Numbered from the stretch's first letter, positions 19,185 to 61,793 are shown. The stretch is 64,000 nt of DNA from Longimicrobiales bacterium (GCA_036381195.1 DASVDH010000078.1:10250-74249); one strand, 5' to 3'. Notes: generated from the sequence alone by a model not told the origin. A program made the numbers and translations.

Positions 19185-19200
19185 TGCAAGGAGGATGCCG
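19185..19200 (-). promoter_or_regulatory. candidate sigma-54 (-24/-12) promoter for the carbamoyltransferase gene
   Basis: Minus strand reads CGGCAT-CCTCC-TTGCA against consensus TGGCAC-N5-TTGCW. GG and GC have exact spacing. Predicted TSS is near 19173, about 95 nt upstream of ATG 19078. Confidence 0.5.
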
Positions 19201-19615
19201 GCAAGGGATGGGGGCCGGGGCAGGCCGGTATCGGGGGCGAGTGAGGGGGAACGCGCATGGCCGTAGGAGATGCGGCAGGCGGGTGCCGGCGGGCTGATCG
19301 GTCCGCCCGGCGGGCGCGGGCCCGCGCGCAACGACCGTGGCAGCGGGGCCACACCCCGGCGCCGCGCGCGGCCGCGGCATCGCCGGGGCGGCTCCCGGCA
19401 CGACGTGGCGGGCGCGTGTTGCGGGCCGTCCGTTCCGGTGCGCCAGCGGATGCGCGCTGCCGCTTCCCGAGGGAAGGCCGCCGGCCGGCCGGTGACCCGC
19501 GCGTAGCCCGTAGACCTGCCGCTCGATGCCGGCCGTTGGTGACGGGGTTCCCGGTACGGGCCGGAGGTCGGCTCGTGCCGGTCCACGCGAGACCCCTGCG
19601 GCCGCCGGCCTCGAC

Positions 19616-19631
19616 GGGCACGTGTCTTGCT
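19616..19631 (+). promoter_or_regulatory. candidate sigma-54 (-24/-12) promoter for the deacetylase-FemAB-DegT-GT operon
   Basis: Plus strand reads GGGCACG-TGTC-TTGCT against consensus TGGCACG-N4-TTGCW, with only the first base deviating. Predicted TSS is near 19643, followed by AGGAG at 19654-19658. Confidence 0.65.
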
Positions 19632-19665
19632 CCCCGGGCAGCGCCACGTCGACAGGAGTTCCACG

Positions 19666-20493
19666 CTGATTCACCATTTCACGATCGACGTCGAGGAGTA
19701 TTTCCAGGTTTCCGCGTTCGAGGCATGCGTGCCGCGGGAACGCTGGGATCTGCTCGAGAGCCGTGTGGCGCGGAGCGTCGCGCGACTGCTGGAGCTGCTG
19801 GCCCGGCATCGCGCACGTGCCACCTTCTTCGTCCTCGGCTGGGTCGCGGAGCGCCACCCCGGCATCGTCCGGGACGTGGTGGGCGCCGGGCACGAAGTCG
19901 CTTCCCACGGCTGGGACCATGCGCGCATCCCGGACCTGCGGCCGGAACGCTTCCGACTGGAGGCGCGGCGGACCAAGCAGGTCCTGGAGGACCTGGCGGG
20001 TGCGCCCGTCGTCGGGTTCCGGGCGCCCAGCTTCTCGCTGTTGCCGGGATACGAGTGGGCGCTGGACATCCTGCTGGAGGAGGGCTACCGCTACGACTCC
20101 AGCCTCTTCCCCGTTCGTCGCCCCGGCTACGGCTACCCGAACGGGAAACGAGACCCGCACTGGCTGCGGCTGCCGGGCGGGCGGCTCGCCGAAGTGCCTC
20201 CGACGACCCTGCGGCGCTGGGGCCTCAACCTCCCGGCAGGGGGCGGGGCCTACTTCCGGTTGCTGCCGTACCGGCTCGTCCGCGAGGCGCTCCTGGACTG
20301 CGAGCAGAGGGGCGTGCCGGGGACCTTCTACATCCACCCGTGGGAGCTGGACCCCGGGCAGCCGCGGCTGCGGGCGCCGTTCCTGACGCGGATCCGGCAC
20401 TACGGCGGGTTGCAGAGGACGGAGCGCCGGCTCGTGCGCCTGTTGGAGGAGTTCCGCTTCGGGCGGATCATCGACACGGTGGCTACGCTGTGA
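19666..20493 (+). CDS. polysaccharide deacetylase, XrtA/PEP-CTERM-system-associated type (CE4 domain + DUF3473-like C-terminus)
   Basis: HHFTIDVEEYFQVSAFE..., ATFFVLGW, SHGWDH, and the C-terminal YIHPWELDPGQPR motif typical of the TIGR03006-like family. The ORF-track start (TTG 19627) lies inside the sigma-54 promoter match. I place the start at CTG 19666 (or ATT 19669), 7-10 nt after AGGAG. The start is uncertain. Confidence 0.8.
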   Translation: MIHHFTIDVEEYFQVSAFEACVPRERWDLLESRVARSVARLLELLARHRARATFFVLGWVAERHPGIVRDVVGAGHEVASHGWDHARIPDLRPERFRLEARRTKQVLEDLAGAPVVGFRAPSFSLLPGYEWALDILLEEGYRYDSSLFPVRRPGYGYPNGKRDPHWLRLPGGRLAEVPPTTLRRWGLNLPAGGGAYFRLLPYRLVREALLDCEQRGVPGTFYIHPWELDPGQPRLRAPFLTRIRHYGGLQRTERRLVRLLEEFRFGRIIDTVATL

Positions 20494-21560
20494 GCGTCGC
20501 GGGATCCGTCGTTGCAGAGAGTCGGCGCTCGGCGCCGACCGTGGTCGCGCCTTGGGATGGCGACGCGCGCGCCTGGGACGAGTTCGTCCTGCGGGCGGAG
20601 GGCGGGACGTTCTGCCACCTGTCCTCCTGGCGGGAGGTCATCGGCGAGGTCCTGGGGCACGAGTGCCTGTACGCGGCCGCGCTGGCGCCGGGCGGCGAGC
20701 TGGTCGGCGTGCTGCCCCTGATTCGGGTCCGCAGCCCGATCTTCGGCCACTACCTCGTCTCCATGCCCTTCCTCAATGCGGGCGGGCCGCTCGGCTCGGG
20801 CGAGGCCCAGGAGCGCCTGGTCTCGTGGGCGGTCGAGGAGGCGCGGCGGTCGCGGGCAGACCTGCTGGAGCTGCGGAGCCGCGATGCTGCCGCGCCGGAG
20901 CTGGCTCGCTCGGACCGGAAGGTGACCGTGCTGCTGCCCCTCCCTGCGTCTGCGGAGACGTTGTGGCACCAGACGTTCCGGTCGAAGCTGCGGAGCCAGA
21001 TCCGGCGCGCCCAGAAGGCGGGGATGGAGGCCCGCTTCGGGCCGGACCAGGCGGAAGCGTTCTACGAGGTCTTCACGCGGAACATGCGGGACCTGGGCAC
21101 GCCGGTGCTGCCGTGGCGCTTCTTCGATGCGATCCGCGCGCGCTTCGAGGAGATTGTGGTCTTCGCGGCCGTGTACCGGCGAGGCGAGCCCGTGGCGGGG
21201 GGGTGTGGTTTCGCCTTCCGTGGCACGTTCGAGCTGACGTGGGCCTCGTCGCTCCGGCGCTATGCCCCGGAGGCGCCGAACATGCTCCTCTACTGGTCGC
21301 TCATGGAGCACGCGATCGCGCGGGGGATGGAGGTGTTCGACTTCGGCCGCTGCACCCCGGGCGGCGGAACGCACCGGTTCAAGCTGCAGTGGGGCGGCGC
21401 GGACCAGCCGCTCCCCTGGTCGCGGTGGTCGCCGCGCGGGCTCGCTGCGCCGCCGACGCCGGACCGGCCGGTCTACCGGGTCGCGGGCGCGGTGTGGCGG
21501 CGGCTGCCTCTCGCGGTCACGAAGGCCGTGGGGCCGCTCCTCGCCCGGAGTCTCCCGTGA
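20490..21560 (+). CDS. FemAB-family protein, PEP-CTERM/XrtA-system-associated type
   Basis: GTG 20490 overlaps the upstream stop (GTGA). WDEFV, LPLIRVRSPIFGHYLVSMPFLNAGGP and FDFGRCTPGGGTHRFKLQWGG resemble the TIGR03019-like FemAB/GNAT-fold family. Confidence 0.85.
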   Translation: MSVAGSVVAESRRSAPTVVAPWDGDARAWDEFVLRAEGGTFCHLSSWREVIGEVLGHECLYAAALAPGGELVGVLPLIRVRSPIFGHYLVSMPFLNAGGPLGSGEAQERLVSWAVEEARRSRADLLELRSRDAAAPELARSDRKVTVLLPLPASAETLWHQTFRSKLRSQIRRAQKAGMEARFGPDQAEAFYEVFTRNMRDLGTPVLPWRFFDAIRARFEEIVVFAAVYRRGEPVAGGCGFAFRGTFELTWASSLRRYAPEAPNMLLYWSLMEHAIARGMEVFDFGRCTPGGGTHRFKLQWGGADQPLPWSRWSPRGLAAPPTPDRPVYRVAGAVWRRLPLAVTKAVGPLLARSLP

Positions 21561-22831
21561 GCGCGCCGGCGGTGACCCGGGTGCGGGCGAGGGCCCGCGG
21601 GGGGCGGACGAGCGAGCCGCGGCTCGGCGGGCCATTCCGGCATCAGCCGCCGGTCCGCTCGCCGGTCCCGCCGGGCGCGTTCGTTGCCGCCATCCGGCAG
21701 CTTCTCCGGCTCGCCCCCGATCCGCGACCGCGCCTTTCGGCCCTGCTGGAGGCGGTGTACGGAGCCGAGCGCGTGGTGCTCTGCTCCAGCGGCACGGCGG
21801 CGCTCCAGCTCGCGATCCGGGTCGCGGCGGCGCACGCGGGCGAGCCGGGGCCGGTCGCGCTCCCGGCGTTCACGTGCTACGACGTCGCCTCCGCGGCGAT
21901 CGGCGCGCAGGCGAGTCTCGTGCTGTACGACGTCGAGCCCTCGGCGCTCGCGCCGGATCTCGCGTCGCTGGAGCGGGCCCTGCGCGTCGGCGCCCGTGTC
22001 GTGGTGGTCTCGCCGCTGTACGGGATCCCGGTGGATTGGGGGGCCGTCCAGGCGCTGTGCGACCGCTACGGCGCGGTGCTCATCGAGGATGCGGCCCAGG
22101 GCCACGGCGCCGCCTGGCGCGGCCGGCCGATCGGCTCGCTCGGCGCGATCAGCGTGCTGAGCTTCGGCCGCGGGAAGGGGTGGACGGGCGGCAAGGGAGG
22201 CGCGTTGCTGCTCCGGGGCGCTGCTGCCGGAGCGCACGCTCGGGTGGCGGAGGAGCTGGCAGGGACGTCCGCATTCGTCGAAGCCCGCGTGGTCGCCGGA
22301 TCGCTGGCGCAGCAGGTCCTCGGGCGTCCCGGGCTCTACGCCCTGCCTCGCGCGGTGCCGTGGCTGCACCTCGGCGAGACGCGGTACCGGCCGCCCGTCC
22401 CGCCCGCGGCGTTGCCCAGGGCGGCGGCAGCGCTCCTGCAGGCCTCCAAGGATGCCGCGGATCGGGAAGCCGCACGGCGGCGGGCGAACGGCGAGTTCTT
22501 CCGTGCACGGCTCGACGGCATCGCAGGCATTGGGGTACCGGCCCCGCCGCCGCAGGCGAGCCCCGGGTACCTGCGCTTCCCGGTGCTGGTCCGGGGCGGA
22601 GCCGGGGCGCTCGGTCCCTCGGCCCTCCTCCGGCGCTTCGGGGTGGAGGCCGGGTACCCGCAGCCGCTCTCGGAGCTCGGCCCCGTGCGTGGGCGGCTGG
22701 CCACCGACCCCGGTCCGCTGCGAGGCGCGACGGCCCTGGCGCGGGAGCTGGTGACGCTGCCGACGACTTCGCTACTCGGTGATTCGGAAAAGCACGGCCT
22801 GTTGCGTCTCCTCGATCGATTGCGACGGTGA
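21557..22831 (+). CDS. DegT/DnrJ/EryC1/StrS-family (PLP-dependent) aminotransferase-like protein
   Basis: GTG 21557 overlaps the upstream stop (GTGA). CSSGTAALQLAI, LIEDAAQGHGA and the candidate PLP-Lys region SFGRGKGWTGGKGGALL. Confidence 0.75.
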   Translation: MSAPAVTRVRARARGGRTSEPRLGGPFRHQPPVRSPVPPGAFVAAIRQLLRLAPDPRPRLSALLEAVYGAERVVLCSSGTAALQLAIRVAAAHAGEPGPVALPAFTCYDVASAAIGAQASLVLYDVEPSALAPDLASLERALRVGARVVVVSPLYGIPVDWGAVQALCDRYGAVLIEDAAQGHGAAWRGRPIGSLGAISVLSFGRGKGWTGGKGGALLLRGAAAGAHARVAEELAGTSAFVEARVVAGSLAQQVLGRPGLYALPRAVPWLHLGETRYRPPVPPAALPRAAAALLQASKDAADREAARRRANGEFFRARLDGIAGIGVPAPPPQASPGYLRFPVLVRGGAGALGPSALLRRFGVEAGYPQPLSELGPVRGRLATDPGPLRGATALARELVTLPTTSLLGDSEKHGLLRLLDRLRR

Positions 22832-23853
22832 ACGGTCTGGACCGGGAACGGAGCGGACCTCACGGTTGGGCCACGACGGCCAGTGCCGGAGGCAGCTCGG
22901 AGCCCGGGCCGGCGCTGTCCGTCGTCGTGCCGCTGTACAACGAGGAGGGGAACATCCACCCCCTGGTTTCCGCCGTCCGGGAGGCGCTCGCGGCCGTGGA
23001 ATCGTGGGAGCTTCTCCTGGTGGATGATGGCAGCACGGACGGGACGGCCGCGCGTGCGCTGGAGTGCTGCGGCGCGGACCCGCGGGTGCGGCTGTTGAGA
23101 CTCGCCAGGAACTACGGGCAGACCGCCGCGATGCAGGCGGGGTTCGACCACGCGCGGGGGGCCGTGGTGGTCAGCATGGACGGCGACATGCAGAACGATC
23201 CCGCCGACATCCCACGGCTGGTTGCCCGGCTCGACGAGGGGTTCGACCTCGTGGCGGGCTACCGCGAGCGGCGGCGGGACAAGGTCCTGACACGGAAGGT
23301 GCCCTCCTGGCTGGCGAACCGACTGATCCGGCGCGTGACGGGCGTTCCGATCCGGGACAACGGCTGCTCGCTGAAGGCGTTTCGCCGGGACCTGCTGCAC
23401 CGGCTGCACCTGTACGCGGACCTGCACCGGTTCATTCCCGCGGTGGCCGCAGCGACGGCCGGCGCGCGGATCACGGAGATACCGGTTCGGCATCATCCCC
23501 GGCAGTACGGCCGGAGCAAGTACGGTCTTTCGAGGACGGTGAAGGTCCTGCTGGATCTGCTGACGGTCCGGATGATCCAGCGGGTGCGGGAGCGGCCGCT
23601 CCAGCTCTTCGGCGCCGGCGCGCTCGCCGCGTGCGTGTGCGGCGCCGTGTTCGCGGCCTTCGCGGCGATCGCATACGCCAGGTTCGGTCCGGACAAGGCC
23701 TACTCCGTCGTGTTTCCGGCCGTGTCCCTGCTCTGGTTCGGGCTCGGGGCCTACCTGCTCATGCTCGGGCTGATCGCCGAGGCCGCGCTGCGGGAGGACC
23801 TCCCGGGACACGGACGGAACGCGCCGGTCGTGCGTGAGGTGTCGGGCTCATGA
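22828..23853 (+). CDS. GT2 polyprenol-phosphate sugar synthase-like glycosyltransferase (ArnC/GtrB/DPM1 type)
   Basis: GTG 22828 overlaps the upstream stop (GTGA). LSVVVPLYNEEGNI, LLLVDDGSTDGT and SMDGDMQNDP, plus two C-terminal TM helices as in ArnC/GtrB. Confidence 0.8.
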   Translation: MNGLDRERSGPHGWATTASAGGSSEPGPALSVVVPLYNEEGNIHPLVSAVREALAAVESWELLLVDDGSTDGTAARALECCGADPRVRLLRLARNYGQTAAMQAGFDHARGAVVVSMDGDMQNDPADIPRLVARLDEGFDLVAGYRERRRDKVLTRKVPSWLANRLIRRVTGVPIRDNGCSLKAFRRDLLHRLHLYADLHRFIPAVAAATAGARITEIPVRHHPRQYGRSKYGLSRTVKVLLDLLTVRMIQRVRERPLQLFGAGALAACVCGAVFAAFAAIAYARFGPDKAYSVVFPAVSLLWFGLGAYLLMLGLIAEAALREDLPGHGRNAPVVREVSGS

Positions 23854-24887
23854 ACAGCGCGGATACGGCGGTTTCCGGGAGCGCGGCGTTCACGACTGCC
23901 GACCTGCGGCCGTCGACGGTCTCCGTGATCGTGCCGGTCACGGAGAGGCCCGAGCCGCTGGCGGAGCTCTACCGCGAGTACGCCGCGCCCCTGCGCGCGG
24001 CGGGGCACTCATTCGAGTTCCTGTTCGGCTGCGAGCCGTGGGCCCGCGGGCTTGCAGGGCCGGTGGCTGCGCTGGCGGACGCGGGCGAGCCCGTACGGGT
24101 GCTGGAGGTGGCGAACAGCGCCGGGGAGACGACGCTGCTGAAGGCGCTGGCGGCGCGCGCGGAGGGCGGGATCGTGATCACGCTGCCCGCGTACCGACGC
24201 GTGGAGTCGGCCGTGTTGCCCGTGCTGATCGCGCGGGTCGAGCAGGGCGCCGACATGGTGCTCGCCCGCCGCTGGCCGCGCCGCGACTCGTGGATCAACC
24301 GCCTCCAGAACCGGCTCTTCCACGCTCTCGTCGGCCGCGTGTCGGGCGGCGAGCTGCACGACATCGCGTGCGGGGTCCGGGCGATGCGGCGAGAGGTGCT
24401 GCTGGACCTCCCCGTCTATGGCGACCTGGCGCGGTTCCTCCCGCTGTTCGCCGTGCGGGAGGGCTACGACGTCCGGGAGGTCGATGCGCCGCAGCACCGC
24501 GCCGACGTCCATACGCGGATCTACGGCGCCGGCACGTACCTGCGGCGCCTGCTCGATGTGCTCGGGCTCTTCTTCCTGCTGCGATTCACGGACAAGCCAC
24601 TGCGCTTCTTCGGCCTGATCGGCAGCTCACTCCTGCTGGGCGGCGCGGTCCTGCTGCTCGTGCTCTTCATCCAGCGCCTGGGCGGGGAGGGCATCGCGAA
24701 CCGGCCGTTCCTGCTCCTGGGCTCGCTGCTCGCCGTTCTCGGGGTGCAGGCCATCGCGCTCGGACTCGTCGGCGAGATCATCGTGTATCTGCACGCGCCC
24801 TCGCGCCGGCCGTACCGGCTCGCGCGGACGCGGACACCGCGGTCCGAGGAGGCGGTGGCAACGCCGGTGGCCGCGGATCGGCAATGA
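23850..24887 (+). CDS. GT2-like glycosyltransferase, divergent, with C-terminal TM helices
   Basis: ATG 23850 overlaps the upstream stop (ATGA). VSVIVPVTERPEPL. Same topology as the preceding gene, with two C-terminal TM helices. The DDGS-type motif is not conserved (FLFGCEP). Confidence 0.7.
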   Translation: MNSADTAVSGSAAFTTADLRPSTVSVIVPVTERPEPLAELYREYAAPLRAAGHSFEFLFGCEPWARGLAGPVAALADAGEPVRVLEVANSAGETTLLKALAARAEGGIVITLPAYRRVESAVLPVLIARVEQGADMVLARRWPRRDSWINRLQNRLFHALVGRVSGGELHDIACGVRAMRREVLLDLPVYGDLARFLPLFAVREGYDVREVDAPQHRADVHTRIYGAGTYLRRLLDVLGLFFLLRFTDKPLRFFGLIGSSLLLGGAVLLLVLFIQRLGGEGIANRPFLLLGSLLAVLGVQAIALGLVGEIIVYLHAPSRRPYRLARTRTPRSEEAVATPVAADRQ

Positions 24888-24912
24888 CCGGAGGAAAGGC
24901 GACGAACGTTCG

Positions 24913-26085
24913 ATGAAAGAGGCTGGATTGGATCCGAGGCCAGTCGCGCTCGAGCGGTGTGACACGTTCGTGGGCAGGACCATGAACTGGCTCTACGACC
25001 ATCTTCGGGTGGTCCCGCGCCATTCCCCGGTCGTGCTCGCCGACCGGCTGCAGAACCGGGACGAGTTCCCCGAACTGGTCGCCATGACCCTGCGCAGCTC
25101 CGTCGGGGGGCGGATCTGGCGGAGGCTCGCCCCGGAGAGGATGTACCCTGGCCACGTGCGGACGCTGCGGCGACACGGGCCCAGGTTGCTGCACTCGCAC
25201 TTCGGCTACGTCGCCGCGGGAGACGACCAGCTCCACGCGGCGCTGGGCGTCCCCTGGTTCGTGAGCTTCTACGGCGCTGACGTCTACATGCTGGGCAGGC
25301 AGCCCGAGTGGGTGGACACGTACGGGCGGGTGTTCGAGAAATGCCAGCGGGTGCTGGCGCTCGGTCCCCGCATGGCCGAGGAGCTGCAGCGGCTGGGGTG
25401 TCCCGCGGAGAAGATCTCGATCCACCCGCTCGGCATCGATCCGGCCGGACTTCCGAGCGTTCCGCGCGAGCTCCGGAACGGCGAGCCGTTGCGGGTGCTC
25501 TATGCCGGCACCTTCCGGGAGAAGAAAGGGATCCCGTACCTGCTGGATGGGGTCGCGCTGGTGCGTGATGCCGGTGTCCGCGTGGAGCTGCACCTGGTGG
25601 GCGATGCGGCCGCGAAGGATGGCGATGCCCAAACGAAGGAGGAGGTGTTCCGCCGGATCCGCGGACACGGCCTGGAGGACTGCACGCACCACCATTCCTG
25701 GCTCCGCTTCGACGATCTCGTGCGGCTCGCCCTGCAGTGCCACGTGTTCGTGGCCCCGAGCGTCACGGCGAAAGACGGCGATGCGGAAGGAACGCCCTTC
25801 GTCATCCAGCAGATGATGGCGACCGGGATGCCCGTGATCTCGACCCTGCATTCGGACATCCCCTTCATCTTCGGGCCGCATGCGCACCTCCTGGTTCCGG
25901 AGCGATGCGGACAGGCGATCGCTGATCGGCTGAAGGCGTATGCGGAGGAGCCCTCCCGCCTGACGGAAGACGGCCGACGGCTCGGCAGTCATGTCCGGGA
26001 AGCGCTCGACGTGCGCAGGTGTGCGGCTGCGTTGAGTGACCTCTACGACCGGTACGCGGGGAGCGGGTCGCCCGGGGAGCGGTGA
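24913..26085 (+). CDS. glycosyltransferase, GT4/group-1 type
   Basis: C-terminal half is typical of GT-B: LRVLYAGTFREKKGIPYLL, VFVAPSVTAKDGDAEGTPFVIQQMMATGMPVIST. The start may alternatively be ATG 24982. Confidence 0.8.
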   Translation: MKEAGLDPRPVALERCDTFVGRTMNWLYDHLRVVPRHSPVVLADRLQNRDEFPELVAMTLRSSVGGRIWRRLAPERMYPGHVRTLRRHGPRLLHSHFGYVAAGDDQLHAALGVPWFVSFYGADVYMLGRQPEWVDTYGRVFEKCQRVLALGPRMAEELQRLGCPAEKISIHPLGIDPAGLPSVPRELRNGEPLRVLYAGTFREKKGIPYLLDGVALVRDAGVRVELHLVGDAAAKDGDAQTKEEVFRRIRGHGLEDCTHHHSWLRFDDLVRLALQCHVFVAPSVTAKDGDAEGTPFVIQQMMATGMPVISTLHSDIPFIFGPHAHLLVPERCGQAIADRLKAYAEEPSRLTEDGRRLGSHVREALDVRRCAAALSDLYDRYAGSGSPGER

Positions 26086-29293: not shown

Positions 29294-29669
29294 GACGGAG
29301 CCCTCGTGAGGAGAGCGCCCACCGGTCTGCCGTCCCGACCCGTCGGTCGGTTCGGCGAGAGCGACGCACGCCCTGGCGTCGCGGGGCAGGAGAAAAACGA
29401 GCGGCGCACGCCGGTGGCGGTGCCGGGCCGGCGCGGCCGCAGCCGCCGGGTCGCGTGCAAAGTCTGTGCACCCGGAGGGCATCGCCGGACGGGCGGGCCG
29501 AGGGCGGCAGGCACGCGGCGCGGCCGCGGGTTCGGCGCACCTGGCAGCCGGGGGGCTGTGGTCAGGCGGGGCAATGTGTAGCGCGGCCGCAACGCCGCGG
29601 CCGAGCCGGCGGCGGGCACGCCGGCGCCGGCGCGAGGGTCGCAGGCGAGCGGCCGGCGAACGCGTTGCG

Positions 29670-29685
29670 TGGTACTCGCCTTGCA
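29670..29685 (+). promoter_or_regulatory. candidate sigma-54 (-24/-12) promoter for the GT4/GT2 pair
   Basis: Plus strand reads TGGTAC-TCGCC-TTGCA, one mismatch to TGGCAC-N5-TTGCA. Predicted TSS is near 29697, only ~8 nt before ATG 29704. Confidence 0.6.
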
Positions 29686-30846: not shown

Positions 30847-30874
30847 CGGGCGCGCAGCGACAACCCGACCGACG

Positions 30875-41545: not shown

Positions 41546-41561
41546 GGCAAGTCTGATACCA
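41546..41561 (-). promoter_or_regulatory. candidate sigma-54 (-24/-12) promoter internal to the long minus-strand gene array
   Basis: Minus strand reads TGGTAT-CAGAC-TTGCC. GG and GC have exact spacing. Predicted TSS is near 41534, about 25 nt before GTG 41510, with an AGAGGA Shine-Dalgarno in between. Confidence 0.5.
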
Positions 41562-41680
41562 GCAGGGGGAGGGGCGGTGTCGGTGCGGACGGGAGCCCGA
41601 GGCGCCGCGAGGGGCTGGCCGCCGCCGCCGGGCCCCCACATCTGTAGTGGGCCCGCCACAGCACCCCCGTCGGCGGCGGC

Positions 41681-45561: not shown

Positions 45562-46015
45562 AAAGGGTTCCGGGAGGTGACGCTTCGGGGCACTGGCCAA
45601 CAGCAGCGGAGTGCAAGGTCCGAGCTAAGGGTAACGGGAGGCGGCCACCTCGAATTCGGGCCGGGCCTTCTGCGATCCGGGCCACTTGGCGCCTTCCGCC
45701 CGCACCTGCGGGATTGTGGGATTGACGCCACACGCGGTGGCCCAGGTGCAGCGGTATGGGCCGGCGGTCGTTGCGTCCAACGGTGCTCCGTACCGCGAAA
45801 GGCCTGGGCGGATCAGGGAAGAGATACCTGGGAGATATCAGGCCGGGTGGCTGGCGCGGGCGGGCCGGCGCCGGCATCCATGTTTCCGTAGGAGCCGAGG
45901 CCATGGACCCGCAGGGCAGCGTCCAGCTCGAGCGCGAGCGCGGGGAGGGTGGCACCCCGGGCCCTCCTCCGAGGCGACCGCGGCGCCGCGGCCAGCGGCG
46001 GCAGCAGAGTTTCCG

Positions 46016-47758: not shown

Positions 47759-47774
47759 TGCAAGAACGGGGCCA
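47759..47774 (-). promoter_or_regulatory. candidate sigma-54 (-24/-12) promoter
   Basis: Minus strand reads TGGCCC-CGTTC-TTGCA, one mismatch to consensus. It lies in the 111-bp gap. Predicted TSS is near 47747, about 30 nt before ATG 47716. Confidence 0.55.
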
Positions 47775-52791: not shown

Positions 52792-53001
52792 GCAGCTGCC
52801 TCGTTCGTCGCGATTGAACCAAAGACCACCGAGCGTGAATCCCCCGGAGGGCAAATCTCCGGATCACCGGCGGCCAAGCGGGCGTGGCGGGCGGGGAGCC
52901 CGCTGTAGCCCTCGACTCTGCGCTCCCGTCTTTCCGCGGGTTTGCTCTGAGCAACGACGATGGTGGGCTTTGGTCTTGTTCGCGGCTCGGTCGCCCGGAG
53001 C

Positions 53002-53017
53002 GGCAACAGCGGTGCCC
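53002..53017 (-). promoter_or_regulatory. candidate sigma-54 (-24/-12) promoter for the Big_2 lipoprotein gene
   Basis: Minus strand reads GGGCAC-CGCTG-TTGCC; GGCAC and TTGC are perfect. Predicted TSS is near 52990, about 200 nt upstream of ATG 52791. Confidence 0.6.
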
Positions 53018-53043
53018 GGCGCGGCACGGACCCGTGCCGCGCC
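53018..53043. repeat. 26-bp near-perfect palindrome abutting the -24 element
   Basis: GGCGCGGCACGG-ac-CCGTGCCGCGCC, with 12-bp arms. It's followed by a second 12-bp palindrome, CCAAGCGCTTGG (53046-53057), and then ATTTTC. Confidence 0.6.
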
Positions 53044-53582
53044 GCCCAAGCGCTTGGATTTTCGGGAGATCACGGCTCGCCGCGGCTCGACGGAGTGGCG
53101 GAACGACCCGGCCGCCGCCGGGACTTCATTGCCGGCCGACGTGCATTCTTTTCAGCGGCGGGCCGCGGGCGTGCCTTGCTGGTCGCGGCTAGCGAGAGTC
53201 GGCAGAGGACTCATCGCCACGATTGGAATCGAAATCGTCGTGTAATGATAAGCGATCGCCGCCCAATAGCCGGCCGGAGGCAGTTCGGGAGTGACTGTAT
53301 CGCTATTCTGCCGGCTTGCGGGTCGTCGTGGCCCACGTCCACCGAGAAGCCCGGCAAACCGGATCCCGGGCGCGGCCGCGACGCCAGACCGGGAAGACAG
53401 CGACGGGTCCGAGCAGCAGGCCGTGGCCGACATCGGGGTGGCGGAGCCCGTCGCGGCCCCGCGTCAGCGTGGGCTGCCGGAAGCGGAGCGGGAAGGTCGC
53501 GGCGGCTGTGCGATGGCCGGCCGCGTGGTACCGGCGCCGTCGCCGGGGTGCGCCCGGCGGCGGAGCGCCTCGAGGGGTCACA

Positions 53583-54356
53583 TCACCACGCGCCCAACCT
53601 GAACGCGATGACGGGGAGGGTGCGGAGCATGATCTTGAGGTCCTCGAGGGCGGACCTGCGCTGGATGTATTCGAGGTCGTACTGGAGCTTGCGGCGCACG
53701 TCGTCGATGGAGCTGTCGTAGTGATGGTTGATCTGGGCCCAACCCGTGATGCCCGGGAGCACGTGCTGCCGGTCGGAGTACCGCTCGATCTGGTCGCGGA
53801 GCCGCATGAAGATGGCGGGCTGCTCGGGACGCGGCCCCACGATGTTCATGTCGCCCTTGAGGACGTTGATGAGCTGGGGCAGCTCATCCAGGCGGTAGGC
53901 GCGCAGGATGCGCCCGATCCTCGTGACGCGGGGGTCGTCGGGCGCGGCCCAGACGGCGCCGGCACGATCCGCGTCGGGGACCATCGTGCGGAACTTGTAG
54001 AGCTTGAAGAGCCGCCCGCCGTAGTCCACGACGCGGCGGTGTCCGCCGGGCGAGCGTTTGCCGCGCCGGCGGTCGATGCCGACCCGGATCTGGGTGAAGA
54101 AGACGGGTCCTGGGGAGGTGAGCTTGATCGCGATGGCGATGACGAGCATCAGCGGCGCCGCCAGGAGGAGGCCGATGGCCGCGACCGAGAGGTTGAGCAG
54201 CCGGAGGGACCAGGAGTCCCGTGCCGGGATGTGTCGAACGACCGCGGTGGTGTCCAGGCCGTGCAGGTCCGGGGCGGTGCCATGCGCGTAGCGGCCATCG
54301 ACGGGGCGCGGCCGCACGCGGAGTTGTCGTACGCTGGCGATGCTCTTGGATGTCAT
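53583..54356 (-). CDS. polyprenyl-phosphate sugar-phosphate transferase (bacterial sugar transferase, WbaP/EpsB C-terminal type)
   Basis: ATG 54356. One TM helix (LLNLSVAAIGLLLAAPLMLVIAIAI) is followed by SPGPVFFTQIRVG, KFRTM, DELPQLINVLKGDMNIVGPRP and GITGWAQI. Confidence 0.9.
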   Translation of the reverse strand: MTSKSIASVRQLRVRPRPVDGRYAHGTAPDLHGLDTTAVVRHIPARDSWSLRLLNLSVAAIGLLLAAPLMLVIAIAIKLTSPGPVFFTQIRVGIDRRRGKRSPGGHRRVVDYGGRLFKLYKFRTMVPDADRAGAVWAAPDDPRVTRIGRILRAYRLDELPQLINVLKGDMNIVGPRPEQPAIFMRLRDQIERYSDRQHVLPGITGWAQINHHYDSSIDDVRRKLQYDLEYIQRRSALEDLKIMLRTLPVIAFRLGAW

Positions 54357-54435: not shown

Positions 54436-54451
54436 TGCAACGGTCGTGCGC
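54436..54451 (-). promoter_or_regulatory. weak sigma-54 promoter-like sequence upstream of the sugar transferase gene
   Basis: Minus strand reads GCGCAC-GACCG-TTGCA. The -12 element is perfect, but only one of the two invariant -24 G residues is present. Confidence 0.25.
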
Positions 54452-54613
54452 GTGGCGGGAGGGGTGGAGCTGCGGTCGTAAGTCGCTCTGTTGCCGCTAG
54501 TTGCGATCGTGAGGGTGGTTGGCGCCGGGGCGGCGGTCTTGTGGCGGGGTGGCGACTTCTGTGGGCGGGGCGCCACACGGGGTGTGGCGGCGGGAGGGGG
54601 CGGGCGCCCTGGG

Positions 54614-55731
54614 TCAGACGAGGGCCGCGGGGGGCAGGTGGAGCTCGAAGAAGAACCGTGTCCCCCACCCTCGCCGGGTTTCGAAGCGGAGCTCGGAATC
54701 CATCGCCGCGAGGAGCTTGCGGCAGATGGCGAGGCCGAGGCCGGTGCCGGAGAAGCGCCAGCCGCTCGCGCGGTGGCGGTCCGGGCGGAAGGGTTGGTAG
54801 AGCGAGGCGACGACGTCGGGGTCGATGCCGTTGCCGGTGTCGCGGACGGAGAACTCGACGCGAGAGGCGGCGCAGGGGTGGGCGACGATCTCGATGAACC
54901 CCTCGTCGGTGAACTTGAGCGCGTTGCTCGTGAGGTTGAGGAGGACGCGGCTGAGGGCGACGGGGTAGCCGAGGCGCCGGTCCGCGTCCGGGGGCAGGAG
55001 GCGGATGGTGAGCCCTTTTTCCTCTGCCATGGGCTGGACGATGTCGGCGACGGACTGCAGGATCTCCGTGACGGAGAACGGAGAGGGCTCCGTCTCGGTG
55101 AGGCGATCGCCGCTGCGGGCGAGCTCGATGACGTCGCTGGCGACGGAGATCAGGCCGAGGGCGGCGCTGTAGATGATGCCGAGCTGGCGCCGCTGGGTAT
55201 CGCTCACGGGTCCGCTCCGGCCTCGCCGCAGGGTTTCAGCGAGGAAGAGGATGGAGGTCAGGGGGGACCGGAGGTCGTGCGCGAGCTCGATGGCGAGCTC
55301 CAGGCCGTCCGGGCGCAGCAGGCGCATGGCGAAGGAGTCGGCATCCACCGGCTCTGGCTCGGTGGATCCGCGCAGCCGCTCGAGGTTCTGGAGCGTGCGC
55401 AGCATCTCGGGGGTCGGGGGCGACACGGGCGCACGCGCCCACTCCAGCAGCAGCTCGGCCCTGAAGCGGTCGAGGATGGGCGGCGGGAGGAGGGGGCCGG
55501 CGCTGTCCTGCGCGAGGCGCGGGGCGTCTGGCGCGTCGGACTCGATCGCGCGGGCGAGAGCGATGAGCTCCCGGATGGGGAGTTCGCCGTGGCCGCCGCG
55601 CGAGGGGTCGGCGGACTCCTCGGCGATGCGGCGGACGGCGGCCCGCAGGGCCGGGGAACGGATGGTTTCGAGCGAGCAGGAGTCGGCGGCAGCGGCGTCG
55701 CGCGATGGTCGTCGTTCGAGCTCGGGCAGGC

Positions 55732-55735
<4 letters not shown>
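54614..55735 (-). CDS. soluble sensor histidine kinase (HisKA + HATPase_c)
   Basis: ATG 55735 overlaps the stop of the response-regulator gene (ATGA). H-box ELAHDLRSPLTSI, N-box LLNLTSNALKFT, G1 VRDTGNGI and G2 GTGLGLAI. No hydrophobic helix in the ~150-aa N-terminal region. Confidence 0.85.
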
Positions 55736-57282
<1,547 letters not shown>

Positions 57283-57903
57283 GGGGGGACTACCTCCGTC
57301 GAACGATACAAGATTGGATCGTGGCGCGGGCCGGAGTCGGGGCGAGTCCGAAGCCGTCCGGCGGGGCGGCGGCCGTCCGCGACCGACTCGGTCGCAGGTC
57401 TATCGGGCCGGGCCGGCGCATCATTGGGGAACGGCGGCTGGTGCCGCTTCTCGCCGTGAGCGCCCTGGCGGCGCGCGACGCACGACGCGGAGCGGACGTG
57501 CGGGGCGTTGCCGGCACCGGGATCGCGAGCCAGGGGACGACCGCTCGAGCCGACACTCGTGAGTTCCTTGGCTGCGCTGCCGACCCGGGAGCGAGTGATG
57601 AAGGCCATGGCAGCGTCCATGGACGGACTCCACACCATCGGCAACGCTGGCCGATGCGGCCGGCAGAGCGGTCGCGGCGGCCTCAAGTAGATAGCTGAAA
57701 CGGGTGGCGCTGTCAATGGCCGAGGCACCGTTTCGTAGCGGGGGCGCGACAGGCCCCGGGCGGAGGAGGGGGCGCAAAGTGTGGTGCTCGCGCAACAAGA
57801 CGAGGGGCGGGCTGCCCGGGATTTGACGCCCGTGTGCGGGGAGAGCGGCGGCACGGCGCGGATCACGAGGCAGGCGTGGGCGGGCGCGGTGCGGATCCGC
57901 CTG

Positions 57904-57919
57904 CGGTACCGGGATTGCG
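57904..57919 (+). promoter_or_regulatory. candidate sigma-54 (-24/-12) promoter upstream of the Wzc-like gene
   Basis: Plus strand reads CGGTAC-CGGGA-TTGCG. GG and GC have exact spacing, with two flanking mismatches. Predicted TSS is near 57931, about 67 nt before ATG 57998. Confidence 0.4.
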
Positions 57920-57997: not shown

Positions 57998-60418
57998 ATG
58001 TCGAGCAATCTTCCGACGACGCCAGGGCCGGTGGAGCTGCAGATGGCCGCGAGCGAGCCGGGCCAACCGGCCCGGGCGGTGCCTGAGCTGGGCGCCGGTG
58101 CCTCGTTCAACTGGCGCCGCTACGTCTCGATGGTGCTGAGGCGGAAGTGGCTGGTGCTGGGCATCACGGCGTTCGGCCTGGCGGCGGGCGTCCTGGCGAC
58201 GCGGTTCATGAGCCCGGTGTACGTGGCAAACGCGACGCTCTGGATCGAGGCGGACGACCGGCGCGGGTCGAGCCCCGGACCCATCCGCCCGGATGGATTG
58301 CTGGAGGCGTGGGGGTGGCGCGAGCTGCTGAGGTCGTACGTGGTGCTGGACCACGTGGTGCGCGAGGCGCTGCTGTACGTGACGCCGCAGTCGCCGGCTG
58401 ATTCGGCGTTGTTCAAGGGGTTCGGGCTCAAGGAGTCGTTCCGGGTCGGAGAATACTCGCTGAACGTGGCGGAGGACGGGCGGACGTTCGTGCTCGCGGG
58501 TGAGGGCGGCGTCGAGATCCAGCGGGGCGTGGTCGGCGATTCGGTGGGTGCGGGCGTCGGTTTCCAGTGGGTCCCGCCGGCAGAGGAGATGCGGCCGGGC
58601 CGGGTGGTGAAGTTCAGGGTGGGGTCACCGCGGGATGCGGCGGATGCGCTGGCTGCGGCCCTGGACGTACGCATGTCCGAGCGAGCATCGAACTTTATGC
58701 GGATCTCGCTGGAGGGCACGGATCCGGTGCGGATCGCGCGGACGGTGAACGCGGTGGCGGAGCGGTCGGTGGAGGTGGCGGCGGAGCTGAAGCGGGCGAA
58801 GCTGGACGAGTACACGGAGATCCTGCGGGCGCAGTTGGAGACGGCCGAGCAGAATCTGGCGGCGGCGGAGACGGCCCTGGAGAGTTTCCGGGTCCAGACG
58901 ATCACGTTGCCGTCGGAGCGGACGGTGATGCAGGTGGCGCCGGGGCTGCAGCAGACGCGGGATCCGGTGTTCGCGCGCTACTTCGACATGAAGGTGGAGC
59001 TGGACGAGGTGGCGCGTGCGCGGGAAGGGATCGAGCGGGTGCTGGCGGAGGCGCGAGGGGGAGAGCTCTCAGTGGCAGGCCTGGAGGCGATCCCGGCGGT
59101 GCAGCAATCGTCGGAGCTGAGGGCGGCATTGAGCGAGCTGACGGATGCGCGTGCGGAGTTGCGGGCGCTGCTCCACCAGTACACGCCGGAGCATCCTGCG
59201 ACGCGGCGGCTGGAGGCGCAGATCGACACGCTGGAGCGGCGGACGATTCCGCGGCTTGCGACGGTGCTGATCGGGGAGCTGGCGACGCGGGAGGCGGAGC
59301 TCGCGGCGCAGGTGCGAGGCGCCTCCGCAGAGCTGCAGGCGATTCCTCCGCGGATGATCGAGGAGGCGCGGCTGATGCGCCAGGTCGCGATCGCGGCGGA
59401 CCTGTACCAGTCGCTGCAAGCGTCATATGAGGAAGCGCGTCTCGGGGCGGAGAGCAGCATCCCGGACCTGCGGATCCTGGACATGGCGGCGGTTCCGCGA
59501 CGGCCGGTGAGGGATGAGCGGCCGAGGGCGATTCTCCTCGCGTTCCTGGGGAGTCTGGGGCTCGCGGTGGTGGGCGTGGTGTTGCTGGAGAAGGTGGATC
59601 CACGTGTGCGGTACCCGGAGCAGGTGACACGGGAGCTCGGGCTGCCGATCCTGGGCGCGGTGCCCCGGCTGGAGACGCCGGGCGGGTCGGTCCAAAGCGG
59701 GTCGGAGAGCGCGGCGCATGTGATCGAGGCGTTCCGGGGGATCCGGCTGAACCTCGCCTATGCGGCAGCGGCGGACGGCGGGCCGCTGCAGGTGACGGTG
59801 ACGAGTCCGGGTGTCGGGGATGGCAAGTCGTTCGTCAGCTCGAACCTCGCGCTGGCCTTCGCGGAGCTGGGGAAGCGGACGCTGCTCGTGGATGCGGACA
59901 TCCGGCGGGGTGTGCTCCACCGGCTGTTCGGGCGGACCCGCAAGCCCGGCTTGACCGATTACCTGGCGGGGGATGTGACCCGGGAGGCGCTGGTCCAGAG
60001 GACGCGGTACCCGATGCTGGACCTGATCGGATCGGGCACGCGGATGCAACGGGGGCCGGAGCTGCTTTCGACTGCGGCGCTGGGGGAGCTGCTCGACGCG
60101 CTGCGCTCGGAGTACCAGGTCATCATCGTGGACACAGCGCCGTTGAGCGCCGGTGTGGACCCGTTCGTGTGCGGGACGGTGACAGGCCGCGTGCTGATGG
60201 TGCTGCGGACAGGGATGACGGACCGTGAGCTGGCGGGTGCGAAGCTGGGCGTGCTGGACCGGCTGCCCGTCGAGGTGGTAGGGGCGGTGCTGAACGACGT
60301 GACCCGGAGTGGCACGTACGGCTACTACTATCGGCTGTACGGCTACTCGGCGAATTACGAGGTGGTGGGGTCGGAGGAGGAGACGGAGACGCTCGTGGCC
60401 GGCGAGCGGCGGAGCTAG
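57998..60418 (+). CDS. polysaccharide co-polymerase / BY-kinase (Wzc/GumC-EpsG type, chain-length determinant fused to tyrosine autokinase)
   Basis: N-terminal Wzz-type region with TM helix (WLVLGITAFGLAAGVLATRF), a long coiled-coil and a second TM. Walker A SPGVGDGKS, A' LLVDADIRRG and B VIIVDTAPL. Tyr-rich tail GTYGYYYRLYGYSANY. Confidence 0.9.
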   Translation: MSSNLPTTPGPVELQMAASEPGQPARAVPELGAGASFNWRRYVSMVLRRKWLVLGITAFGLAAGVLATRFMSPVYVANATLWIEADDRRGSSPGPIRPDGLLEAWGWRELLRSYVVLDHVVREALLYVTPQSPADSALFKGFGLKESFRVGEYSLNVAEDGRTFVLAGEGGVEIQRGVVGDSVGAGVGFQWVPPAEEMRPGRVVKFRVGSPRDAADALAAALDVRMSERASNFMRISLEGTDPVRIARTVNAVAERSVEVAAELKRAKLDEYTEILRAQLETAEQNLAAAETALESFRVQTITLPSERTVMQVAPGLQQTRDPVFARYFDMKVELDEVARAREGIERVLAEARGGELSVAGLEAIPAVQQSSELRAALSELTDARAELRALLHQYTPEHPATRRLEAQIDTLERRTIPRLATVLIGELATREAELAAQVRGASAELQAIPPRMIEEARLMRQVAIAADLYQSLQASYEEARLGAESSIPDLRILDMAAVPRRPVRDERPRAILLAFLGSLGLAVVGVVLLEKVDPRVRYPEQVTRELGLPILGAVPRLETPGGSVQSGSESAAHVIEAFRGIRLNLAYAAAADGGPLQVTVTSPGVGDGKSFVSSNLALAFAELGKRTLLVDADIRRGVLHRLFGRTRKPGLTDYLAGDVTREALVQRTRYPMLDLIGSGTRMQRGPELLSTAALGELLDALRSEYQVIIVDTAPLSAGVDPFVCGTVTGRVLMVLRTGMTDRELAGAKLGVLDRLPVEVVGAVLNDVTRSGTYGYYYRLYGYSANYEVVGSEEETETLVAGERRS

Positions 60419-61338
60419 ACGGGGCGGGTGGCGCCCTCGGTCTGGAAGTCATCGGCGACCTGGACCGGGCTCTCGCTGCTCCCGGCCTTGTGGAGCGCGA
60501 GGGTCGCGCGGACCAGGAGGTCCGCCGGGGCGATCGCGGTTTCGCGGAAGCTCGAGACGCCGGCGCAGCCGACGCGGAACTGGCGCGGCGTGTCGCCGGC
60601 GGGGTCGGGCGCGCGTTCCCGGATCACGCGGAGGATGCGTTCGGCCGCGATCCGGGAGCCCGCGGGTCCGGTGCCGGTGGCGAGGATGACGAACTGGGAT
60701 GCGCCGAGCCGGCCGACGACATCGGACTTGCGGACCGTGTCGCGGAACGTTTCGGCGAATCGCCTTAGGAGATCGGGGTCGTCGGGGCCGGGCGCGAGCG
60801 CGAAGATGATGCACGCCATGGGGCGGTCGTGGCGCGCGGCGTCAGCGCCGATCTCCCTGGCGCGCTGGAGAATGCCGCGCAGGTTGTAGAGGCCGGTGGC
60901 CTCGTCGAGAAGGCCGTGATCGCGCGCGTGATCGCTGTCGAGCTTGGCGCGCGCGAACGCGTTGAGCTTGAGCACGAGCTCTTCGGCATCGAGCGGGAAC
61001 CCGATGATGTCCCAGGCGCCGGCCTTGAGGGCCTCGAGTCGCTGTTGTCTGGTCGCGGGGCCCGCGGTGGTGAGCAGGACCGGCGTGCTCCTCAGGAAGC
61101 CGGGGTCCCTGCAGATGAGCCGGCAGGTCTCGATGCCGTCGGGCTCGGGCAGGTCCACATCGAGCAGCAGGATGTCCGGGCGGGAGTTGCGGAACGCTTC
61201 GATGGCGTGCTTGCCGCTGGAGGCCCGCAGGACGGCGAATCCGTGGGGGCCGAGGATGCTCTCAATGGACCAGCCGATCCATTCCTGATCGCTGGCAACG
61301 AGGACGAGGGGTGCCGCCGCGCCGTTCGCTGGCTTCAT
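60415..61338 (-). CDS. response-regulator receiver fused to a degenerate GGDEF domain
   Basis: ATG 61338. REC (PDILLLDVDLPEPDG, VLLTTAG). GGDEF-like domain (DEATGLYNLRG..., RKSDVVGRLGASQFVILA, ...LLVRATLALHKAG). The active site reads GASQF instead of GG(D/E)EF. RKSD occupies the RxxD I-site position. The stop shares the tetranucleotide CTAG with the Wzc stop. Confidence 0.8.
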   Translation of the reverse strand: MKPANGAAAPLVLVASDQEWIGWSIESILGPHGFAVLRASSGKHAIEAFRNSRPDILLLDVDLPEPDGIETCRLICRDPGFLRSTPVLLTTAGPATRQQRLEALKAGAWDIIGFPLDAEELVLKLNAFARAKLDSDHARDHGLLDEATGLYNLRGILQRAREIGADAARHDRPMACIIFALAPGPDDPDLLRRFAETFRDTVRKSDVVGRLGASQFVILATGTGPAGSRIAAERILRVIRERAPDPAGDTPRQFRVGCAGVSSFRETAIAPADLLVRATLALHKAGSSESPVQVADDFQTEGATRPV

Positions 61339-61777
61339 GTGCTCGCTGTTCCGTGTTGTGACGCACGGGAAGCGGAGAGTCAGATCGAGGAGCGGCTTGC
61401 CGCGAAGGGCAGCCACTCGCGGGACGGATTCCGGCCTCTCGCTTTCGGGCCCGTGATGTTGCAGGAATCGTGCGACGAGAGGGACGAGGGCGCCGCGCCG
61501 ATGCCTGTGGCCCTTGCGCATCCGCGGGCCGCGCCGGCCGGGAGGCCGGTTGCGGCGCGGAGGCGACACTTTGCTCCCGGGCTGCTACACGCGGGCCGCC
61601 CGGCGGAGAGCGAAGAGGGGTCGTCGGAGGCGGAAGCGGCCCGGAGAGAACGGCGTGCAGCCGTGCTGCCGCCGGCCGGCGCCGAGGCGGCATCGATCTT
61701 GAAAACGCGGCGGCCCGGATTGATCATCGCGCTGCCGAAGGCGCCATCTTCGGCGTGTCCTATTCCAGAGTGGGAGC

Positions 61778-61793
61778 GGGGACATGCTTTGCG
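61778..61793 (+). promoter_or_regulatory. weak sigma-54 promoter-like sequence upstream of the Wza-like gene
   Basis: Plus strand reads GGGGAC-ATGCT-TTGCG. GG and GC spacing is exact, with a C-to-G mismatch in the -24 element. It overlaps the ATG of the small ORF 61784..62020, so the two calls are mutually exclusive. Confidence 0.3.

Follow-up and report, generated by a model that had tools for sequence, protein, structure and literature searches.

The 64,000-nucleotide window analyzed here (GCA_036381195.1, DASVDH010000078.1:10250-74249) comes from a metagenome-assembled genome of a Longimicrobiales bacterium, a soil bacterium of the phylum Gemmatimonadota. It contains an exopolysaccharide locus in which most transcription units are preceded by sigma-54-like (-24/-12) promoter sequences, and a bacterial enhancer-binding protein (bEBP) is encoded among them. 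Few phyla are more abundant in soil than the Gemmatimonadota, yet to our knowledge almost nothing has been learned of how their genes are regulated. A gene map drawn with a codon-usage scorer gave 42 complete genes and one partial gene at the left edge of the window, with 56.7 kb of coding DNA and 7.4 kb (11.5%) of intergenic DNA. The G+C content is 70% for the window and 72% for the intergenic DNA. Pfam and NCBIfam scans show that polysaccharide synthesis genes fill the whole window and that its right-hand 45 kb is a Wzx/Wzy-type exopolysaccharide locus. Besides the units listed in Table 1, the locus holds a Wzy-like polymerase, an asparagine-synthase-like amidotransferase, several glycosyltransferase genes of the GT2 and GT4 families, a Wza-like exporter, and WecB. 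An association with XrtA-type polysaccharide enzymes is found through the deacetylase (TIGR03006, 342.8 against a cutoff of 276.2) and the FemAB-like protein (TIGR03019, 294.9 against a cutoff of 260.35), both of which pass; a match to TIGR03108 falls under its NCBIfam cutoff.

A preliminary description of the window, made by eye, had proposed sigma-54 promoters for at least seven transcription units and quoted nine 16-mers. Each of these occurs in the sequence where and as it was quoted, strand included. The genes it had placed downstream (carbamoyltransferase, deacetylase operon, GT4/GT2 pair, GT2, membrane protein, Big_2, and Wzc-like) agree with the gene map and the family scans, as does an NtrC-family activator with an intact GAFTGA loop at 55732-57282. 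Its figure of about 10% for the intergenic share is close to the mapped value. The features are collected in Table 1, and promoters and dyads are referred to below by their first coordinate.

Table 1. Genes, sigma-54-like promoters, upstream dyads, and riboswitch candidate of the window
Feature	Coordinates	Strand	Sequence	Details
Carbamoyltransferase gene	17267-19078			Downstream of 19185(-)
Deacetylase operon	19666-26085	+		Deacetylase, FemAB-like, DegT aminotransferase, GT2, GT2-type (ArnC-like) glycosyltransferase, GT4
Membrane protein and Wzx flippase genes	29272-26101	-
GT4/GT2 pair	29704-32050	+
GT2 gene	40707-41510	-
GT2/GT4 pair	45600-43308	-
Membrane protein, unknown family	start ATG 47716	-
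Big_2/PL14-like gene	49756-52791 or -52854	-		1011-residue Big_2 protein, weak polysaccharide-lyase-14 match
Small priming sugar-phosphate transferase gene	53583-54317	-
Histidine kinase gene	54614..55735	-		HisKA and HATPase_c; ATG overlaps the activator stop codon (ATGA)
Response-regulator-type bEBP gene	55732..57282	-		Receiver (REC), AAA+ sigma-54 interaction domain, lid, HTH_8
Wzc-like co-polymerase/kinase gene	57998 or 58031 to 60418	+
Receiver-GGDEF-like gene	60415-61521	- as listed		Adjoins the Wzc-like gene in most of 68 related loci
Riboswitch aptamer candidate, cyclic di-GMP (c-di-GMP)-I type	52866..52956	-		5' leader of the Big_2/PL14-like gene
Sigma-54-like promoter	19185..19200	-	CGGCATCCTCCTTGCA	13.5 bits; 107 nt upstream of the carbamoyltransferase gene
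Sigma-54-like promoter	19616..19631	+	GGGCACGTGTCTTGCT	14.5 bits; deacetylase operon
Candidate promoter	29456..29471	-	GTGCACAGACTTTGCA	9.7 bits; 184 nt upstream of the membrane-protein/Wzx flippase unit; missed in the preliminary description
Sigma-54-like promoter	29670..29685	+	TGGTACTCGCCTTGCA	16.9 bits, top match of the window; GT4/GT2 pair
Sigma-54-like promoter	41546..41561	-	TGGTATCAGACTTGCC	12.2 bits; GT2 gene
Candidate promoter	45612..45627	-	TAGCTCGGACCTTGCA	10.5 bits; GT2/GT4 pair; missed in the preliminary description
Sigma-54-like promoter	47759..47774	-	TGGCCCCGTTCTTGCA	11.9 bits; 43 nt upstream of ATG 47716
Sigma-54-like promoter	53002..53017	-	GGGCACCGCTGTTGCC	8.7 bits; exact GGCAC-N5-TTGC; upstream of the riboswitch candidate and the Big_2/PL14-like gene
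Atypical -24/-12 element	54436..54451	-	GCGCACGACCGTTGCA	8.4 bits; sugar-phosphate transferase gene
Sigma-54-like promoter	57904..57919	+	CGGTACCGGGATTGCG	8.3 bits; Wzc-like gene
Weak site, dropped	61778..61793	+	GGGGACATGCTTTGCG	6.9 bits; upstream of the Wza-like gene
Dyad	19336..19353	read on -	TGTGGCCCCGCTGCCACG	Between divergent 19185(-) and 19616(+); 145 nt upstream of 19185
Dyad	29577..29594		TGTAGCGCGGCCGCAACG	Common to divergent 29456(-) (115 nt) and 29670(+) (84 nt)
Dyad	41643..41660	pattern on both	TGTGGCGGGCCCACTACA	91 nt upstream of 41546
Dyad	45715..45732	read on -	TGTGGCGTCAATCCCACA	97 nt upstream of 45612
Dyad	54560..54577	read on -	TGTGGCGCCCCGCCCACA	118 nt upstream of 54436; overlapping second inverted repeat GCCACA-N5-TGTGGC
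Dyad	57780..57797		TGTGGTGCTCGCGCAACA	115 nt upstream of the Wzc promoter 57904

Both strands of the window were scored with a sigma-54 matrix, and the chance level was set by 1000 dinucleotide shuffles of the intergenic DNA. At a threshold of at least 8 bits there are 14 intergenic matches, compared to 4.1 ± 2.2 in the shuffles, none of which reaches 14, and 27 coding matches. At a threshold of at least 11 bits the intergenic count is 5 compared to 0.7 (P about 0.001), with 3 matches in coding DNA. The density of matches is 3-12 times higher in intergenic than in coding DNA. The intergenic DNA has no higher A+T content, so base composition does not explain this excess. Of the 14 intergenic matches at 8 bits or more, 13 aim at the adjacent gene, including six of the seven in gaps between co-directional genes. 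The GG and GC doublets are exactly 10 nt apart at 19185, 19616, 29670, 41546, 47759, 53002, and 57904. A matrix scan comparing intergenic, coding, and shuffled sequence had been proposed in the preliminary description, and the enrichment it anticipated was found.

These counts bear on the possibility that such matches arise by chance at 70% G+C and that the eye picks out TTGC in gaps. The exact sequence GGCAC-N5-TTGC occurs twice in the window, both times in intergenic DNA as the preliminary description had pointed out. Its rough estimate of about 0.8 expected is near the 0.62 given by shuffles, 15% of which reach two, so the exact count alone is not significant and is weak as evidence. With up to one mismatch allowed the window has 23 occurrences, no more than chance would give (18.9), but 12 of the 23 fall in the 11.5% of intergenic DNA. 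Several of the listed sites score only 7-9 bits, and 27 coding matches reach 8 bits. Chance does not account for the intergenic excess at 72% G+C that no shuffle equals, for the orientation of the matches, for the conservation of sites in dozens of genomes with diverged flanks, or for the independent upstream dyad that co-occurs with the sites. Together these observations contradict a chance origin for the set as a whole, which we regard as very improbable, and chance may account for one or two single sites such as 61778 and possibly 47759. Two matches were set aside: 28183(-), which scores 14.3 bits, lies in coding DNA and is inside the chance expectation for it, and a match at 5554(-) has the wrong orientation. 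A sigma-70 consensus scan of 52.7-62.2 kb returned one match, and such a scan is uninformative for this phylum.

Related loci were collected in two ways. A scan with the activator protein, taking one genome per species, gave 68 Gemmatimonadota loci in which the activator orthologues have 53-73% protein identity (mostly 57-70%, one close relative 95%). A scan of metagenomes with the deacetylase gave 80 further loci, for about 150 in all; individual loci are denoted by L numbers. An exact-sequence look-up of the activator protein returned no record, and the assignment to the Longimicrobiales follows from the related loci and from the cluster to which the glycosyltransferase belongs. In most of the 68 loci the Wza-like, REC-GGDEF-like, and Wzc-like genes occur in this order, followed by the divergent activator, kinase, and sugar transferase genes. 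Sites of at least 12 bits occur in the 68 genome loci at 0.277/kb in intergenic DNA and 0.027/kb in coding DNA, and sites of at least 14 bits occur in the 80 metagenomic loci at 0.529/kb and 0.023/kb, respectively. Thus, sigma-54-like sites in the related loci are 10-23 times denser in intergenic than in coding DNA.

Conservation upstream of orthologous genes whose flanks have diverged is evident for 19616, 57904, and 54436 and partly for 53002; it was not found for 61778 or 29670. Upstream of the deacetylase orthologue, rGGCACr-N4-TTGCA occurs in about 60 of the 78 metagenomic loci, whose flanks are unrelated, and 40 distinct copies of this element are invariant at GG, CA, TT, and GC, with variable spacers and flanks. 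The Wzc orthologue is preceded by CGGTAY-N5-TTGC, or by CGGTCT-N5-TTGCA in one clade, in L001, L013, L017, L018, L022, and the L002 group. The flanks are otherwise unalike, and the recurrence of the motif in these lineages makes the low-scoring 57904 credible. The sequence nnGCACG-N4-TTGCW is conserved before the sugar-transferase orthologue in many Gemmatimonadales and Longimicrobiales loci, and the Gemmatimonas clade has a canonical CGGCACG-N4-nTGC at this position. Of the two sites that the preliminary description had ranked as weaker, 54436 is therefore conserved even though its first G is missing, whereas 61778 is both weak and unconserved. No recurring -24/-12 motif was found upstream of the Wza-like or REC-GGDEF-like orthologues; nothing in this comparison supports 61778, and a sigma-70-like TTGAAA-17-GATCAT is located near it at 61699-61727.

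The same comparison addresses the idea that the elements are operators or promoters of another factor, either a repressor or an extracytoplasmic function-type sigma factor, that resemble -24/-12 sequences. The sugar-transferase element lacks GG, and in L008-L012 nnGCACG-N4-TTGCT has another box like GGCAC or GGTAC 10 nt upstream of it, 22 nt before the GC, a spacing unsuited to sigma-54. Our literature search found no experimental characterization of Gemmatimonadota promoters. The 40 distinct deacetylase copies argue the other way, since their invariant doublets have the canonical spacing and rGGCACr-N4-TTGCA is the sigma-54 consensus. Their fixed distance of 12-14 nt to the start codon fits a promoter and not an operator, and an activator with an intact GAFTGA loop is encoded alongside. 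Recognition by another factor is in our estimation extremely improbable.

Of the other sites, 19185 corresponds in position to CGGTATCTTCTTTGCA in the close relative L081. At 29670 the ATG begins 18 nt past TTGCA, so the leader would be very short. Two close relatives, L161 and L162, have 84-89% protein identity to the window and spacers that are about 85-90% identical to it. Site 41546 is identical in L161, a relative too close to inform, 45612 is identical in both, and the L161 counterpart of 47759 is TGGCCTCGTTCTTGCA; for 47759, it is the matrix score that points to a promoter. Around 53002, whose sequence is identical in L161 and L162, a block is conserved although the rest of the spacer has diverged. 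With 29456 and 45612 added, nine to ten transcription units have a supported promoter, so the earlier count of at least seven stands. A block upstream of 53002, at 53040-53180(-), contains TGAAAAGAATGC-N-CGTCGGCCGGCAATGAAGTCCCGGCGGCGGCC and is almost invariant in L161 and L162, whereas divergence or insertions mark the remainder of the 790-nt spacer; the block could be a site for a different activator. The sequence CGGTACCGGCGTTGCC at 37294-37309(-), which closely resembles the Wzc promoter, is part of the 3'-terminal coding region of a GT4 gene; a second deacetylase gene follows after 63 nt. Homologues of this deacetylase gene have strong sigma-54-like sites 26-35 nt before the start in 15 metagenomic loci, and it is a speculative suggestion that 37294 may be an internal promoter.

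The activator encoded in the locus has the features of its class. Its Pfam matches are to Sigma54_activat (PF00158, 1.2e-66), the receiver domain (PF00072, 6.6e-25), and the Fis-type helix-turn-helix (PF02954, 2e-08). Walker A (GESGTGKE) is at residue 213, GAFTGA at 260, and Walker B (LDE) at 283. The acidic pocket DD, VDL, the conserved T, and KP of the receiver are all readable. The protein looks like an active response-regulator-class bEBP. Its best NCBIfam match is TIGR02915 (PrsR) at 371.4 bits compared to a cutoff of 502.6, level with AtoC (370) and NtrX (357), and identity as a PrsR equivalog was rejected on these grounds. The adjacent histidine kinase is without a transmembrane or N-terminal hydrophobic segment, and its first ~145 residues match no family. 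A good sigma-54-like site precedes the activator gene in ten relatives (L019, L020, L021, L027, L028, L048, L054, L061, L065, and L067), for example TGGCACAACGGTTGCT in L065 and CGGCACAsTTGTTGCC in L027 and L028, which suggests autoregulation in those relatives. The Pfam and NCBIfam scans, which covered the window, found no rpoN among its genes. The presence of sigma-54 and of its activators matches almost perfectly across 842 genomes, and Gemmatimonas aurantiaca T-27 is listed with a sigma-54 homologue and about a dozen activators (PMC3162934). From this phylum-level evidence, we infer that sigma-54 is present in the source genome.

The preliminary description had proposed looking for an element shared upstream of the promoters, and one was found. 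Among the k-mers over-represented before strong promoters of the relatives (154 distinct ones), TGTGGC and GCAACA stood out. In the window these words combine into an 18-bp dyad with the pattern TGTRGY-N7-C-N-ACR and the consensus TGTGGCG-N4-CGCCACA. The pattern has nine matches in the window (eight sites, seven of them intergenic) compared to 0.44 expected, and six dyads pair with seven promoters at distances of 84-145 nt (19185, 29456, 29670, 41546, 45612, 54436, and 57904). The dyad lies 117 nt upstream of the Wzc promoter in L013 and 124 nt upstream in L001, and it lies 103-125 nt upstream of the sugar-transferase promoter in the relatives. Because the pattern had been defined on the window, it was tested on the other genomes. 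Its density in the relatives is 0.33-0.43/kb in intergenic DNA compared to 0.011-0.029/kb in coding DNA, a 15-30-fold enrichment, and 38 of the 154 strong promoters have it upstream, where shuffles predict 0.57. This enrichment and the geometry identify the dyad as a probable enhancer for a sigma-54 activator. For two extra dyads, 5057-5074 and 7472-7489, the 200 nt searched contain no -24/-12 partner. The second asparagine-synthase-like gene is preceded by one of them, in a gap of 635 nt, and carries the other at its 3' end, ahead of a GT2 gene. Both dyads fall in the left part of the window (1-13905, +), where a GT4 gene, two more asparagine-synthase-like genes, a FAD oxidoreductase, a GT2 gene, a deacetylase, another GT2 gene, and a second flippase lie on a single strand, almost gapless and without sigma-54-like sites. 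This part may be a second cluster transcribed from beyond the window.

The dyad data bear on which protein acts at the promoters. The promoters could be true sigma-54 promoters of which the locus activator controls some or none, with other bEBPs controlling the rest and a different regulator binding the dyad. No dyad occurs within 200 nt of 19616, 47759, or 53002, and a relaxed search near these sites and near 61778, 33464, and 37294 found nothing under four mismatches. The strict dyad accompanies only 25% of the strong promoters in the relatives, the dozen or so activators listed for G. aurantiaca offer several candidates, and no activator appears within 10 kb in the metagenomic loci whose deacetylase promoter is conserved. 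This alternative does not account for the near-constant distance of the dyad before the Wzc and sugar transferase genes, the units that flank the activator, throughout the 68 loci, and an activator gene beside its targets is the usual arrangement (SypG, PrsR). We consider control by other bEBPs unlikely. Binding of the dyad by the locus activator is the interpretation we favor from its position and spacing, and we infer that this protein, not an activator encoded elsewhere, drives all of the units.

Several observations weigh against a common sigma-54 switch and are considered together here. The scoring matrix is our own approximation of the Barrios sigma-54 frequencies and not the published matrix. 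The related loci share ancestry, and many of the metagenomic contigs are near-duplicates of which identical sequences alone were removed. The GG of a -24/-12 element is near-invariant, and its first G is absent from 54436 (CG), 45612 (AG), and 29456 (TG), which makes these sites atypical. Sites 53002, 54436, 57904, 29456, and 45612 score 8-10.5 bits, a range in which coding DNA also has matches. The comparison of 41546, 45612, and 47759 is confined to L161 and L162, whose spacers are so similar to those of the window that they say little about these sites. The top-scoring 29670 has no counterpart upstream of distant homologues of the GT4/GT2 pair (g21) in L018, L048, and L051. The activator gene in the window has no convincing sigma-54 site of its own, and neither does that of the closest relative, L013. 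To these are added the three promoters that lack a dyad and the definition of the dyad pattern after inspection of the window. The evidence in favor of the switch consists of the intergenic enrichment in the window and its 10-23-fold counterpart in the relatives, the three conserved sites, and the shared dyad. On this evidence, it is probable that most units of the locus are read from sigma-54 promoters activated by the bEBP of the locus.

The Big_2/PL14-like gene appears to have a second input. The aptamer candidate in its leader is a full-length match to RF01051 at 31.4 bits compared to a gathering score of 35 (local E = 1e-4 in a permissive local Rfam search), and the core GCAAACC...GAAA...ACGCA is conserved; Rfam at gathering thresholds gave no match in the whole window. 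Homologous leaders score above the gathering threshold, at 36.2 in L162 and at 52-65 in L107, L101, L126, L120, and L155, and some of them are in tandem with the GGC variant RF03167. A model built from the homologous leaders found 25 copies in L081-L162. Two relatives show strong conservation of the 200-nt leader from 53002 to the Big_2 gene but not of the distal spacer. In L107, L120, and L126 a sigma-54-like site of 11.5-15 bits is located 22 nt before the homologous riboswitch, which gives partial support to 53002 as a promoter. In these three independent loci and the window clade, the aptamers begin 22-48 nt past the sigma-54-like site. The idea that such a site precedes every riboswitch was rejected, since among the 25 aptamers the arrangement occurs only in these loci. 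The candidate resembles RF01051 (GEMM-I) in its full-length aptamer match and differs in that the window copy is under the gathering score and directly behind a sigma-54-like promoter. This arrangement suggests dual control of the Big_2 gene by the activator and c-di-GMP. A second c-di-GMP component is the receiver-GGDEF-like protein. It has a degenerate GASQF in place of GGDEF and an intact RxxD (RKSD) five residues upstream, and these motifs make it more likely a c-di-GMP receptor than a cyclase.

The position of 19616 affects the start of the deacetylase gene. The sole canonical in-frame start codon, TTG 19627, is inside the -12 element, and no ATG, GTG, or TTG occurs downstream of the promoter. 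Past the promoter come an AGGAG Shine-Dalgarno sequence (19655-19659) and, after it, the codons CTG 19666 and ATT 19669. Since TTG 19627 is overlapped by the promoter element, the real start is probably CTG 19666 or ATT 19669. The sequence CTGATY (CTG then ATT or ATC) is kept in the two closest relatives, and L081 and L082 keep the CTG. Of 40 distinct, more distant copies of the deacetylase gene (L083-L160), 33 have an ATG or GTG start 12-14 nt after TTGCA. The transcription start positions are predicted from the promoter elements, and on this reckoning the start codon would be at about +3, which implies leaderless mRNAs from the sigma-54 promoter in those relatives. This start-codon rule is offered to annotators of these loci.

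The closest established system is the syp locus of Vibrio fischeri, an 18-gene polysaccharide locus in which, in the account given in PMC10162802 (citing Yip 2005 and Ray 2013), all four operons depend on sigma-54 and SypG. SypG is there described as a locus-encoded response-regulator bEBP under histidine kinases with a conserved enhancer upstream of each syp promoter (PMC10162802). Measured against that account, the window likewise has a response-regulator bEBP in the locus, several sigma-54-like promoters, and a shared putative enhancer. The likeness is architectural only, and homology of the activators is claimed at the family level only. The phylum and the biosynthetic genes are unrelated, and about ten promoters are predicted here compared to four in syp. 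A single soluble kinase lies beside the activator in place of the multi-kinase phosphorelay described for syp, the enhancer motif is different, and one unit has a c-di-GMP riboswitch candidate.

PrsK/PrsR/PrsT is a second precedent. Haft et al. (2006) described this two-component pair with an NtrC-type activator inside PEP-CTERM/exosortase polysaccharide loci of Proteobacteria, together with a bipartite element composed of an activator motif, a spacer of ~63 nt, and a -24/-12 motif that is never inside coding regions (PMC1569441). The window resembles these loci in having such a pair in a polysaccharide locus, in its XrtA-type TIGR03006 and TIGR03019 proteins, and in the top match of its activator to TIGR02915. 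It differs in that the activator is at 371 bits compared to the cutoff of 502.6 and in that the kinase has no membrane segment whereas PrsK is transmembrane. TIGR02916 is not among the best 25 of 71 NCBIfam matches, no TPR family (PrsT type) or exosortase family was found in the scanned window genes, and a six-frame pattern search of the window found no PEP-CTERM-like tail. The putative targets here are biosynthesis genes and not PEP-CTERM protein genes, and the dyad of the window does not share the TTTACA end of motif 1 in Haft et al. (PMC1569441). Francke et al. (2011) linked sigma-54, its activators, and its promoters to exopolysaccharide, lipopolysaccharide, and peptidoglycan precursor genes across phyla (PMC3162934). 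That is a statistical cross-phylum statement without the description of a Gemmatimonadota locus, for which one genome was then available.

These comparisons and the sequence features suggest the following mechanism. The soluble histidine kinase would phosphorylate the receiver of the bEBP, which would assemble on TGTGGCG-N4-CGCCACA dyads ~85-145 nt upstream of the promoters and, with ATP hydrolysis and its GAFTGA loop, open closed complexes of the sigma-54 holoenzyme. The units switched together would be the sugar-phosphate transferase for chain initiation, the Wzc-like protein for export control, several glycosyltransferase pairs, the flippase unit, the carbamoyltransferase, and the deacetylase/FemAB/aminotransferase decoration operon. 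The Big_2/PL14-like secreted protein would be gated a second time by the c-di-GMP-I riboswitch candidate. A wider proposal, which we advance tentatively, is that a sigma-54 exopolysaccharide regulon extends across the Gemmatimonadota with its own enhancer code, promoters fused to start codons that yield leaderless mRNAs, and a c-di-GMP layer composed of single or tandem riboswitches before secreted Big_2 proteins and a degenerate-GGDEF receiver by Wzc.

The general picture of sigma-54 control by a locus activator is unchanged, being established for polysaccharides in V. fischeri and proposed for PEP-CTERM loci. The arrangement itself is known in other bacteria; what is new is its tracing through the phylum, the predicted enhancer motif, the riboswitch layer, and the apparent leaderless sigma-54 transcripts. 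Our literature search turned up no publication about Gemmatimonadota that deals with their sigma-54 promoters or with c-di-GMP riboswitches. The analysis yields a testable regulon consisting of about ten promoters, a predicted 18-bp enhancer, and a two-component pair conserved in dozens of genomes. If the wider proposal is true, two-component signaling and c-di-GMP converge on matrix production in these soil bacteria. The core of the system is shared with cultured Gemmatimonas, where direct work on the production of matrix and biofilm would be feasible.

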